A stretch of DNA of 63,871 nt, filler included, from Neolecta irregularis DAH-3 (GCA_001929475.1; 13 parts of 13 records of this genome joined end to end with filler, not necessarily neighbours in it), one strand, 5' to 3'; shown: positions 317-56,321, counted from the whole stretch's first letter. Notes: a model not told the origin generated them from the sequence alone. Made by a program: numbers and translations.

Positions 317-2145
317 ATGAAAAAGTACGGAAAATTCAAACAGGTGAGCATGGTCTGGGAGGCCATGGCTGACCTCGCAGTGGACTGGCGAAAAGGCACG
401 GGCGACCCTGGCGGTGGGAAACTGACTTGCCACAGCTCGGTTCGCAACAACGCACCTATGAATCTTCAGAGTTTAGAGAGCTGCAGAACGAGATGGCCAT
501 GCGCCAGGCCGGTATTTATCGGGCTCCACTCTGGGTTGACGCATATAGGGATGGACCGCCTCTTCTCCTCCATGCAGATATACATCAAGGTCATAAGTAG
601 AGCCTGTGTGTGGGTTTCACTAATCTCCAAGGCAAAAAGATAGAAGGAGACGACCGGGAGAAGACCCTTCCTGTCGACTCGCTGGGACAGTCCATGATAT
701 GCCACGGAGAAGAATTCGCCCAAGAATCGGCATTCGGACAAACCCTCCTCAAGCTGGGAGTGGCAGAACAGAAAATGTCGCGAATCCAGTCAAATCTCGT
801 CACTCGAACGACAGACTCGACACTGAATCAAATCGAACGGTCGTTGATTCAGATGAAGGATTATCAGGTGAGAGTATTACCTCATCACAAACTCACGAGG
901 TAGACAGCGAAGAAGAAACTAGAAAGTCGAAGATTAGCGTATGATGCTGCCTCGAACAAGACCAAGAATTCGAAGAAAGAAGATGCAAAGCTCGAAGAAG
1001 AACTCCGAACTGCAAAGACGAGATTCGAAGAGACCAGCGAAGATGTCCAGAATCGAATGGACCAGATCCAGGATTCGGAAGTACGCATGTATCTTGACCA
1101 GGTGCTAACAAACTAGTCGGATACTCTCTTCGCACTAACGGATTTCATGGAAGCACAACTTGAATACCATACTCGCTGCCAGTCGATCCTCCAACAACTC
1201 AAAAACGGCTGGGTCGAGTATGGTTACATATATCTGCACTTTACTAATACACAAGAGTCCCAAAGGACCTGGGCCGTGGCAAGACTCGTTCCGTACACCA
1301 AGCATTCACTGGAGCTAGAGACGATGAAGATGACGACGATACTCCTCGACCTGTAATCCACTCAAAGCTGCTCGCACAAGACCCTTCAGATCCTCTCTGC
1401 CTCCAGCAATTAAATATCACTCCTCGAGTTAGTCGGTCTACTAGTGCTCAAAATCCGTCGGCGGATAGCTCTCGACCGCAAAGCAGCTCTGCAGAGCCGC
1501 TCCTGAGAAGGACAGCTACAGAGCCAGTTTTGGCATGTTCTCGACCTTCCGGACCGAAAAAATTTGTCAAGGCGAATTTCGCATTCGATGCTGAAGCTAA
1601 TGAGGAATTAAGTCTTAATGTGGGAGACTTGATTGGCGTTGTTGATGAGGTTGATCCAGGCTGGTGGATTGGAGAAATCGTCGATAATGAAGGAAAACCA
1701 ACAGTTCCTGCAAAACAAGGACTGTACGCATTGCTTTATGTACAGCGATCTAACCTGTAGATTTCCTGCAAATTATTGTACTCCCGTTCCCCAGCCATTT
1801 TACCGTGCAATGCCGAAACTTCCACCTCGAACCGTGAGTGACGTCTTTCGGGATCCAGAATCCGCATCTCCTTCAGCCTCAAGTAAAGACAGTGCATTTG
1901 AATCATCATCGCCTTCAGTGCGGAGAGAATCTCCCGTTCGAACTTCAACTAATACACTCTCTAAACCAGCGGTATCAAAAGCCGTTAAAGCATCGCCCCC
2001 TCCTCCCCCCATTTCCAGAGCTAAAAAGTCGAGTGTACTTGCCACAAGGGTTGACGTTGGGACTTGTGGCGAGTGCGGTTGTAGTGACTACCAAAAAGAC
2101 TTTTTCAAAAAAGGGAGGTGTAATAATTGTTTCCATGAGCATTGA
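317..2145 (+). CDS. BAR-domain + SH3 adaptor protein (endophilin/Mug137-like), multi-exon
   Basis: Spliced N-terminus MKKYGKFKQWTGEKLGSQQRTYESSEF...LGQSMICHGEEF (fungal N-BAR); SH3 KANFAFDAEANEELSLNVGDLI...PGWWIG...FPANY; Pro-rich linker; Cys-rich C-terminus. Confidence 0.85.
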
Positions 2146-2330
2146 TGGGGATGATTTTTCGGGTGTTTTTATTTCGTTTCAAGACCCTGGTGATGGTTTG
2201 CATGGATATGTATGGAGATGCATTAGGCAGCATTTTAGCTGGAAACTAATTATGATATCGGCCGGATCTATTTAAAAGATTCCTGGTACCTAAAACTTTT
2301 GACTCCAACACCTTACTCCGGTTCAAATAA

Positions 2331-3828
2331 TCAAAAGCGAATCTCATAACTTCCCGCCTACTCGTCAATTACACAAAAATCGAGAAGCAAACCCTAGTCA
2401 TATATCTTACCCATTTGACACTATTGTAGTTACTTTTCTCAAAAACCTTGAGATAGCGAACGAGTAAGCCAGAACTAGTCCACATCAAAAGTGAAAAGTT
2501 CATTGATATAGGGGGCCGAGACCATGCTTTTCGATTTGTCATTTGGGTAAGATCGGCTTCTGCAGATAAGACATATTCCGATTGCCCCGTAAACTTTGTG
2601 ATCCTATCGTTAGTTTCGTCTGAAAGAAGTCGTACTTCCAAACCATATGATTTCCCGAAGGTTCGTATTTCGCTTTTCCTTGAGATGTCCGTATATTGAT
2701 ATTGGCTGTATTTAATGGGGTGGGTATCGTTACAACAACGTTATTAGCGCTTAACTTTGCAGGAAAATTTGCTCTTATGGCGATTTGATATTCTACTTTA
2801 GACTTTCCTAGTTCCTCAACTATAGGATGAACCTTGAACGGTAAAGTAACGTTGTCGGTAGCTCGATATCTATGATGTCAACCCCATCAAAGGGAATCAA
2901 TACTTCATTAATTCGAATTCACCATCCGAGGGAATGAAACTGATCACTCGGTCTGCATCGAACTTTCCTAATTTCACACATTGGTGGAATTGACAGTCTT
3001 CAAGGGTAACAGAACCTGCCGCAGCGTTTCCACCTTTTTTAGGATTGGAGGTATCTGTGTCAAAGAGGAGTCTGTCATTTAGACCAAATTTGCACTCTGG
3101 GGTCCCAGAAAGGTATGCTTTCATCATTATTGATCCAGAAACGTCTGTACGAAGAACGACTCCTTCAGAAATTAGTACGAGAAATTCAACCAAGATACCG
3201 GTTGTACTCATAAGTAGGTTAATATCTTCAATGACGTCGACAAAGGCTTCATTTTTGCGATACTTTATGTCTGTTCGACGCCAAGATATAGCTCCCGTTG
3301 CTTGCATTGTTATTGATTGGCCTTTTTCCTGAAAGTAAGACAACATTGGAGATGGAATATTTGCAATTGCCCGTTCGGTTTTTACACCTTCGGTTGTGAT
3401 GTACATCTTTAGTGTGTCTGCTTCACTTGTCTGTGGATATCCAAAGTCCAGAATCTCTATTCTGTTTAATTGAGTTCAGGAGACTCCACACCATCGAATA
3501 ATTCATAGACCATCACAAAGTTATCTTTAACGGCACTTTCATTGAACTTTCCAAAGTAGTTTCGACCGAGGCTGATCACCTTATACAAGAATTCAAACAC
3601 CAAAGCTGCATTGATGTTTTGCTTAGACACCGCAACAAGGTGGAGATTTTCATGGCGTAGATGAAAGAACGTTATAGAGCCGAGTGTAATTACCGGGGAT
3701 CGAACGTCTGGATTTGAGAGGACTTGAATTCGGAATAAATCGCCGACCGTTCTACGGATGTCCTGTCGGTAGATTCGGGAAATCAAGACTTCGCCTTTCT
3801 GGTTGAATATTAAAACCGAAGAGATCAT
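2331..3828 (-). CDS. APM4: AP-2 adaptor complex mu subunit, 6 exons
   Basis: MISSVLIFNQKGEVLISR, YELFDEILDFGYPQ, ISWRRTDIKYRKNEAFVDV, YLSGTPECKFGLND, SVKWVRYMTRAGSYEIRF*; five short introns traced. Confidence 0.95.
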
Positions 3829-54158: not shown

Positions 54159-54822
54159 TGCGCTTAGAGTAGGATATAGAAATGTATAGACGAGGAATAG
54201 CATTGTGATTAGTCTGAACTAGACCCTCCCCTCACTATGCCAGTCTGGTCTGGTCTACTTAACATGCCGCCCATTGATAAGCCATGGAATCATCATTTCC
54301 GCGAGAAGTGTCTGGTACGGTCCGCTTATGGGTATGAAGTTGGGATTTAAACATTCATCTGATGTTCTCTAGTATCAAGAGTAATGCAAACACGCCTCAC
54401 AATCCCGATTTCTACCAGCTCAAGAAGTAGCTAATGCCAGACATATAGGATGTACTTCATCTGACAATATTGTAGGTAATTCAATGTATTTTCAGTTTAA
54501 TGACTACTTCCCACCTTCCAAACAAATAAGGGTTATCAGAGGATTCTCGTCCAATCTACCCAACCACTCTCCATCCTTATCAACTTCACTAATCGCCATC
54601 AAACTCCCTGATCTGGCTGGCCCAGAAGTTACAGGCGTAAGGATATGCTATTCTATTCCAGTTTTCTTGAGACTTCCTTGTGCATGCAACAGTATCAAAA
54701 AGATGCCATATTACAGATCCCANNNNNNNNNNNNNNNNNNNNNNNNNNNNNNNNNNNNNNNNNNNNTTAATTAATTAANNNNNNNNNNNNNNNNNNNNNN
54801 NNNNNNNNNNNNNNNNNNNNNN

Positions 54823-56321
54823 CCCGCCCGCCAGCCAGCCTGCCCGCCTCAGCCTCCGCCCTCGGGCACCGCCGCCTGCTGCTCCGGACTGCCGCCGTCA
54901 GCCCCGCACGCCCCCCGCAGCCGCGCCGCACCTGTGGGCCATCGCGCCGTCCATGCACCCGCGGCTCAGCATGTTGACCGCCTGGATCGCGTCCACCGCC
55001 GCCTGGAACGTCCTGCGCGTCAGCCCGCCAGCCCAGCCCAGCCCGCCCCGTGCCTCTTGGCATTAAAGTTCTCGCGCACCCCCGGCAGCAGGTCGCGCCC
55101 GCCGCGCCGCGCCGGCCCCGCCACTAGCGCGTGCGCCTGCCCCTCCGCCACCGTCATCCGCGCCCCCGCGTCCACCGTCAGACACCGCCGCACAAAGTCG
55201 CGCGCTGCCACGCCGTCAGCCCGCCGCGCCCCGCCGCCGCCGCGCACGCACCCGTCTCCGACACGCCCTCCCAGTACTCGCCCGGCTCAAACGCATACTC
55301 GCCCTGCAGAATCGCCTGCATCTCCTCCGCGTTGCTGTCGCGGTCAAACGGCAGCATCCCGCTCAGCAGAAAGTACGTAATCACCCCCAGCGCCCACACG
55401 TCCCTGCCCCCGTCAGCACGCTCGCCCCCCGCCCGCAGCAGCACCCACACCGGCTTGCCGTGCCCGCTCTTGCGGAATATCTCCGGCGCCTCCCGATTAG
55501 CCCCCCCGCACCCCCCAAACAGCACCGCTTACCATGTACCCCGGCGTCCCGCACGTCGTCGTCAGCACGCTCAGCTGCTCCTCGTCAATGATCCGCGACA
55601 GCCCAAAGTCTGCAATCAGCAGCTCCGCATCCTCCGCCGGCGTCTTGAACAGCAGGTTCTCAGCCTTCAGGTCCTGCCGTCAGCCCGCCCCCCCCCTGCT
55701 CTGCCCGCACTCACCCGGTGCACTATCCCCGCCGCGTGCAGGTACCCCACTGCGTCCAGCACCGTCCGCACAATCTTGACCGCATCAGACTCGTAGTATG
55801 ACCCCTTGCGACATATCCGGTCAAACAGCTCCCCCCCAAGCGCCAGTTCGGTGATAATATATACTCCACGTCAGCGTGCTCCCCAAGTGACCCACAATTG
55901 TTCGCCGTCTCAAAGTAGTCAAACAGCGTAAGAATGTTGGGGTATATCCCAATCAGCTCATACTGTCTCACTCGCAAAACTCACGACCCATCGAAATCTT
56001 GCGCAGAACCGCAATCTCATTACGCACCTAGCAGTCAAATCCCCCACACTCCAACGGTTCCCCAACCATGTGTTCCCTCCCCGCCATTATCCGCTTGCTG
56101 ATCACTTTCGCCGCATAGTATCTACAGTCAGCATTGTCGCTAACCCCAGACTTTTTCGTTTCAATATGCACAGCTTCTTTGACAATGCTATACGTCCCCG
56201 AGCCCTACCTGTCACAAATGCCCTTTGAAACGCATACAAGGGTCCGGCCCGTTTTGTAGAAACACGGGATAGCTTTTGGTTTTGTCTTTTCACCAGGCGC
56301 ACCGCAGGGATTAAGCGCCAT
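54823..56321 (-). CDS. CMK1: Ca2+/calmodulin-dependent protein kinase (Cmk1-like), many exons
   Basis: [68 protein letters not shown] CaM-binding tail. Confidence 0.92.

Follow-up and report, generated by a model that had tools for sequence, protein, structure and literature searches.

Six introns in a 63,871-nucleotide (nt) stretch of DNA from the Taphrinomycotina fungus Neolecta irregularis DAH-3 (GCA_001929475.1; the whole stretch is called the window below) have GC as their first and AG as their last two bases, and we consider them likely to be ordinary introns of the major (U2-type) spliceosome, a class assignment drawn from sequence features, lying amid a 5' splice-site consensus that is weak in the window at large. 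GC-AG introns, and the compensation that their donors show for the unusual second base, are textbook matter. The window is a single pseudomolecule joined from 15 short pieces, which range from 134 to 11,259 nt, and its six sites fall in genes for ETF-QO, cytoplasmic TrpRS, Ups1/PRELI, a CaMK-type kinase, AP-2 mu and a BAR/SH3 protein.

GC-AG introns in six genes

The original prediction had listed six GC..AG intervals, and direct reading of the sequence places all of them at exactly the coordinates and on exactly the strands claimed, each 36-41 nt long (a slash marks the exon-intron boundary):

5761-5797 (+): ETF-QO GC-AG intron, 37 nt, CAG/GCAATT...GAATAG; excised at the RNA level
25990-26026 (-): TrpRS (cytoplasmic) predicted GC-AG intron, 37 nt, CTG/GCATCC...TAGCAG
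26899-26938 (+): Ups1/PRELI predicted GC-AG intron, 40 nt, AAG/GCAGGC...GGCCAG
55013-55053 (-): CaMK predicted GC-AG intron, 41 nt, GAG/GCACGG...GCGCAG; in a very GC-rich stretch
3329-3364 (-): AP-2 mu likely GC-AG intron, 36 nt, ATT/GCAAAT...TTTCAG; in frame, no stop
396-435 (+): BAR/SH3 (Mug137-like) probable GC-AG intron, 40 nt, AAG/GCACGG...CCACAG

Where boundaries were set by homology or RNA, regardless of dinucleotide, GC..AG was always among the three or four equivalent cuts; this was so, in the manner of U2-type introns, at ETF-QO, TrpRS, Ups1, CaMK and AP-2 mu. That GC..AG recurs at boundaries drawn without reference to the dinucleotide is no chance pattern.

The ETF-QO intron is excised in RNA-derived contigs. 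Two sets of contigs, X1 (DNA) and X2 (RNA-derived), were compared with positions 4811-19281 only (14.5 kb), a stretch within which, of the six sites, ETF-QO alone falls; over it the X1 contigs are colinear with the DNA and the X2 contigs are spliced. An X2 joint from 5758 to 5796 skips 37 nt, with AG..AT, GG..TA and GC..AG as equivalent cuts, among which GC..AG is the sole known splice pair. The joint carries the mark 'between: not known' and is listed without inserted letters, and X2 depth in two bins is down by exactly 18 + 19 = 37 bases; the 37-nt skip and the 37-base loss of depth together mean that the intron has been removed in these contigs. The protein agrees, position 71 of Pfam PF21162 being the last residue of the upstream exon and position 72 the first residue downstream. 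It is barely credible that the GC donors are GT donors misread in sequencing or assembly. The assembly is in fragments (15 pieces over 64 kb) and carries at least one gap artefact, but an X1 DNA contig (which may be source data) is colinear at the ETF-QO site and agrees at 5761-5762 with a word depth of 381 and no other letter, and six independent T-to-C errors precisely at intron position +2 are implausible.

At the other five sites splicing is predicted, most firmly in TrpRS, Ups1 and CaMK, which together with ETF-QO bear out the claim that GC donors restore conserved protein sequence. Spliced alignment of TrpRS to a 91%-identical relative (P0001) leaves four equal cuts with one known splice pair among them, GC..AG, and 115 of 120 homologues share the motif that this cut restores. 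In Ups1 the PRELI profile is continuous over the junction, at about positions 53 and 54, and an alternative donor possible 6 nt upstream is likewise GC. The spliced CaMK peptide is gap-free over the junction in the 10 homologue alignments listed, and spliced alignment to P0247 chooses GC-AG. A search for alternatives at the Ups1 and CaMK sites gave no in-frame GT-AG intron.

The same claim is softened at the two remaining sites. The AP-2 mu interval is in frame and stop-free, so splicing there is not forced; a GC-AG intron is nonetheless likely from the comparison of proteins, the 12 intron columns being empty in 59 of 60 full-length homologues (the exception is the same gene's public model, P0121) and spliced alignment to P0145 choosing GC-AG. 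The BAR gene has a further, well-formed putative intron, read from sequence, just upstream of its GC donor:

344-380 (+): putative GT-AG intron of the same BAR gene, 37 nt, GTGAGC...CTGACCTCGCAG

The frame of the gene is open from an ATG at 317 via a 15-nt exon (381-395) into the annotated coding sequence. Three upstream exons would contribute 33 residues, and P0241, the public model, has a downstream start that leaves out about 34 positions on the N-terminal side of the BAR profile; reading-frame logic and this truncated model make the GC-AG intron probable, and its 3' signal score of 9.4 is within the range of GT introns. The restored N-terminus may resemble endophilin-type N-termini. A PDB search with the 25-residue BAR exon returned only spurious matches to designed proteins, a homologue search with the BAR protein matched solely the window's own public model, and short exon pieces searched against Pfam gave no match in BAR or CaMK, nor with one piece of AP-2 mu.

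Consequences for gene models

At all three GC sites where public models were checked (TrpRS, AP-2 mu and BAR), the models are wrong: P0003 runs into the TrpRS intron and loses eight conserved residues, P0121 gains 12 intron-coded residues, and P0241 lacks its N-terminus. The opposite view, that GT-AG-only models are correct and that AP-2 mu is read through, TrpRS uses another GT donor and BAR starts downstream, can draw on frame-keeping GT-AG or unspliced options at AP-2 mu, ETF-QO, TrpRS and BAR. These options, however, add or drop residues relative to homologues, and the in-frame GT-AG alternatives at AP-2 mu, ETF-QO and TrpRS each remove conserved ones. The intron-derived TrpRS hexapeptide occurs in one of 120 sequences, which is the model itself, the AP-2 mu insert in one of 60 homologues; the X2 contig contradicts the ETF-QO alternative, and Ups1 and CaMK offer none of the GT-AG kind. 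We regard this view as very improbable. Elsewhere in TrpRS, a 36-nt in-frame GT-AG intron at 25570-25605 (-) is kept as coding in P0003, giving 12 residues extra relative to P0001, P0011 and P0005.

The genome serves comparative work on fungal multicellularity and intron evolution, and re-annotation permitting GC-AG donors would alter both protein sets and intron counts. A literature search found no paper joining 'Neolecta' and 'GC-AG'; the main text of the genome paper (PMC5309816) contains none of the terms intron, splic-, RNA-seq or gene model, and its supplements may bear on the matter.

Donor and branch-site signals

The GC introns were set against 33 verified GT-AG introns, 17 of them RNA-supported and the others obtained by spliced alignment (six in TrpRS, five in AP-2 mu and five in CaMK); within this set the intron at 2870-2903 was assigned to GT..AG 1-2 nt off the best homology cut. 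X2 has joints skipping 32-45 nt whose ends, in gene orientation, are GT..AG, and two X2 entries with 14 and 15 letters between their sides supply four extra GT-AG introns flanking micro-exons. Micro-exons of 14-16 nt lie at 11115-11130 (-) and 14522-14537 (-), as letters between X2 joints, and putatively at 381-395 (+) in BAR.

In geometry the two kinds of intron are alike. Lengths are 32-47 nt for GT and 36-41 nt for GC introns, and such short and uniform introns (32-47 nt in all 39 verified) fit tight intron definition. A CTRAY-like branch site stands 6-11 nt ahead of the 3' AG in most verified introns; the distance from 5' site to branch A is mostly 24-32 nt in GT and 28-33 nt in GC introns, and that from branch A to 3' site mostly 6-11 nt and 7-10 nt, respectively. 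By 3' signal score, five of the six GC introns lie within the range of the GT training set, ETF-QO scoring 5.9, where the 5th percentile is 8.2. The GC introns resemble the GT-AG introns here in branch site, 3' site and length.

The donors themselves are weak in both classes. No GC donor reads GCAAGT (0 of 6), as had been reported, yet none of the 33 GT donors reads GTAAGT and just one reads GTGAGT; the missing extended consensus is therefore a trait of all introns here and not of GC introns in particular. G stands at +5 in just 15 of 33 GT and three of six GC donors, and T at +4 in 17 of 33 GT donors (A in three) against one of six GC donors (A in two). Elsewhere the GC donors are closer to consensus: G at -1 in five of six (GT, 25 of 33), AG ahead of the donor in four of six (GT, 9 of 29) and A at +3 in all six (GT, 22 of 33), so the description of these donors as keeping only GCA was too strong. 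Matches to CAG/GTAAGT outside +1 and +2 come to 4.00 of 7 in GC and 3.09 in GT donors (one-sided Mann-Whitney p=0.038, n=6 and 33), which speaks against the claim that compensation is lacking; the compensation is of small scale and amounts, weakly, to about one position over a weak baseline.

Frequency of GC-AG introns

The stretch covered by contigs gives an unbiased sample, in which 17 GT-AG introns and one GC-AG intron are visible with RNA support, or one GC-AG in 18. Joint density is about 42-44 introns per 14.5 kb, which puts the window at an estimated 130-210 introns and its six GC-AG introns at 3-5% of them, a lower bound because the six were spotted by eye. Fungal introns are GT-AG in 98.7% of cases, with 1-1.3% non-GT, in the figures given by PMC7072748; at rates of 1-1.3%, the probability of at least six GC introns in the window is 0.002-0.058. 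The fungal average is about 1%, and GC-AG introns are probably several times commoner here, on small counts. The word 'frequent' in the original prediction accordingly holds as a count above the fungal level, and the enrichment, resting on small numbers, is likely but not established.

Should the window instead hold a chance cluster, GC-AG introns would run at the usual 1% or so genome-wide. The calculated probability varies with assumed intron number and rate and at its upper end would allow this; the interval around the RNA sample of one in 18 is wide (0.2-34% as computed for one in 14), and two of the six sites are not proven. Against it stand the six as a lower bound found by eye, and a single 14.5-kb RNA-contig stretch that had one GC intron among only 18 visible. 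We think a chance cluster rather improbable.

Ab initio scans were uninformative, because 64 kb yields too weak a coding signal, about 0.1 bit per codon, and frequency and donor logos exclude all of their results. Filtering the window by open reading frame (ORF) and branch site left about 230-400 matches for every dinucleotide, with GC not separated, and a pattern scan of the window was flat over dinucleotides as well. At low penalty a dynamic-programming gene finder called as many as 408 'introns', out of all proportion; when strict it gave 46 GT and two GC, with 0-2 for each of 14 control dinucleotides; several of its donors and acceptors conflict with RNA joints. A second scan gave seven GC and 25 GT with controls at 8-21, and missed all six known sites. 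Placing hidden introns by record lengths and reading frame left 532 solutions.

Donor selection and the spliceosome

Several points weigh against taking the six as ordinary GC-AG introns. Only one of them (ETF-QO) is shown to be spliced at the RNA level, and 15 of 43 X2 joints were read. The verified set is small (33 GT, six GC), and four of its genes were picked for holding a GC intron, which makes it unusable for frequency. The test for compensation is marginal at p=0.038, single tests are not significant (p=0.15 for +3, p=0.063 for AG/GYA), and the ab initio scans could not tell GC from control dinucleotides. The AP-2 mu interval could be a lineage-specific insertion of 12 residues, and the BAR gene has a 92-nt GT-AG alternative (344-435) that omits the 15-nt exon and keeps the frame, for which reason that site is rated probable only.

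With these points allowed for, ordinary GC-AG introns still seem to us the likely and simplest reading. The 5' consensus of the verified introns is weak throughout, roughly AG/GTAT with G at +5 in under half; with such a donor signal, C at +2 would cost little and be tolerated. The donor may be chosen mainly by G at +1, G at -1, A at +3 and a fixed spacing between it and the branch point, about 25-33 nt, with intron definition acting over a near-minimal intron length. As they do in other eukaryotes, GC donors would offset the mismatch at +2, here by roughly one further position of the consensus.

The interpretation given in the original prediction is supported in part only. Its strong form, a more radical proposal, is that the spliceosome is specifically altered, for example at the 5' end of U1, at the ACAGAGA box of U6 or the N6-methyladenosine there, or in Luc7/U1-C, such that +2 is unread and GC donors are free without compensation. 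The extended consensus is indeed found in none of the six GC donors, GC-AG introns are apparently several-fold enriched, and T at +4 in 17 of 33 GT donors, with A in three of 33, recalls yeasts, in which a switch of preference from A to U at +4 is linked in PMC10581693 to loss of METTL16/SNRNP27K. This preference for T over A is a lead toward the METTL16/SNRNP27K axis. The GC donors do, however, show modest compensation, and the consensus is equally weak in GT donors, as is known, following PMC2483917, for intron-rich and short-intron lineages. The window's ORF for LUC7, a protein of the U1 small nuclear ribonucleoprotein, at 16560-16967 (+), moreover gives a normal match to the Pfam LUC7 profile over its positions 51-169. 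We hold such an alteration to be unlikely. Its strongest form, in which the spliceosome largely lacks discrimination at +2, at least 5% of introns genome-wide are GC-AG with little compensation, and 5' sites are chosen mainly by fixed branch-point distance in introns of 32-47 nt, together with a change on the U6 side, is similarly doubtful. An Rfam search of the window gave no small nuclear RNA gene and one match only, to a transfer RNA (tRNA). An RSE1/SF3B3-like beta-propeller gene lies at 56790-58721 (-).

Composition and other features of the window

Patches of 58-75% GC stand out from a background of about 44% GC, even within one gene:

54823-56687 (-), about 26000-26600, 34000-36300, 43866-44966 and 48793-49596: GC-rich patches

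In the CaMK gene the 5' end has about 45% GC and the 3' end about 75%, and there the encoded protein becomes rich in Ala, Gly and Arg. Flanks of at least 51% GC surround four of six GC introns and eight of 29 GT introns, in a set biased by gene choice. The patches may stem from GC-biased substitution, which would convert GT donors to GC as well, and might in this way supply new GC donors through T-to-C pressure.

Twelve of the joins in the window are made of 44 N, a six-frame stop spacer (TTAATTAATTAA) and a further 44 N (at 4711-4810 and 11 further places), and two are 10-N gaps; since the pieces are spliced together by linkers, adjacency in the window is not evidence of adjacency in the genome. 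At one 10-N gap an X1 DNA contig links 10701 to 10827, with 125 nt skipped and 66 letters that fit either side, and the surroundings resemble a duplicated overlap from scaffolding. An X2 contig (record 6, 3875 nt) spans 11558-13140 and 8672-9706 (-), bridging the 10-N gap and two kinase-domain ORFs; the frame of the upstream ORF stops at 11890, and the region 8672-13140 (-) could hold two adjoining genes or one mis-read gene.

Among the other features are an IRE1-like kinase gene with a Ribonuc_2-5A domain at 51403-54012 (+) and a long ORF at 58906-61176 (-), perhaps reaching 62715, with reverse transcriptase, RNase H and integrase domains, like a Ty3/gypsy retroelement. The Rfam tRNA lies at 49779-49879 (+), and its 101 nt on a 71-position model suggest an intron; ARAGORN found no tRNA at that place.

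Comparison with known GC-AG and short-intron systems

One of the six donors, that of TrpRS, has GCATCC at positions +1 to +6; PMC1557818 defines a U12-type GC-AG class by this motif. We reject a U12-type reading of these introns. The motif occurs in TrpRS alone (one of six) and the other five donors differ. A U12-type intron would be expected to carry a TCCTTAAC-like branch site at the proper distance, and the branch region of the TrpRS intron, at 7 nt from the 3' end, is CTGCTAAC. With a length of 37 nt, this intron has a CTAAC branch site at that distance, as in its GT neighbours. The GT intron at 18377-18410 (-), of 34 nt and with an ordinary branch site, has the donor GTATCC, which makes the TrpRS match look like chance, and U12-like GTATCC and GCATCC donors are probably to be expected by chance where donors favour GTAT.

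The six resemble the U2-type GC-AG introns known from animals, plants and fungi both in sharing branch-site and 3' geometry with the GT-AG introns of the same genome, and in a donor whose remainder is nearer the U1-complementary consensus than that of GT donors (PMC1557818). They differ in that compensation is about one position and never reaches GCAAGT, in a length of just 36-41 nt, and in an apparent frequency several-fold over the fungal mean of about 1% given in PMC7072748. The compensation of GC-AG 5' sites at other positions is described as smaller in Caenorhabditis elegans, where the GC-AG motif is less conserved and clusters with the worm's own GT-AG motif (PMC1557818), much as the GC donors here resemble their own weak GT donors; there, however, GC-AG introns make up 0.37% in the same source, whereas here they are apparently enriched.

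A further parallel is found in the degenerate signals of intron-rich and very-short-intron lineages treated by Irimia and Roy (2008, PMC2483917), with which these introns share a weak 5' consensus and a very short length. The frequency of GC-AG introns lies outside that work, and most introns here keep a CTRAY branch site near the 3' end. Were the raised frequency to extend over the whole genome, Neolecta would be naturally suited to exploring the limits of 5' splice-site relaxation near the minimum intron length. Weak donors in near-minimal introns fit both the picture of intron-rich and very-short-intron lineages in PMC2483917 and the description of N. irregularis as intron-rich in PMC7940399.

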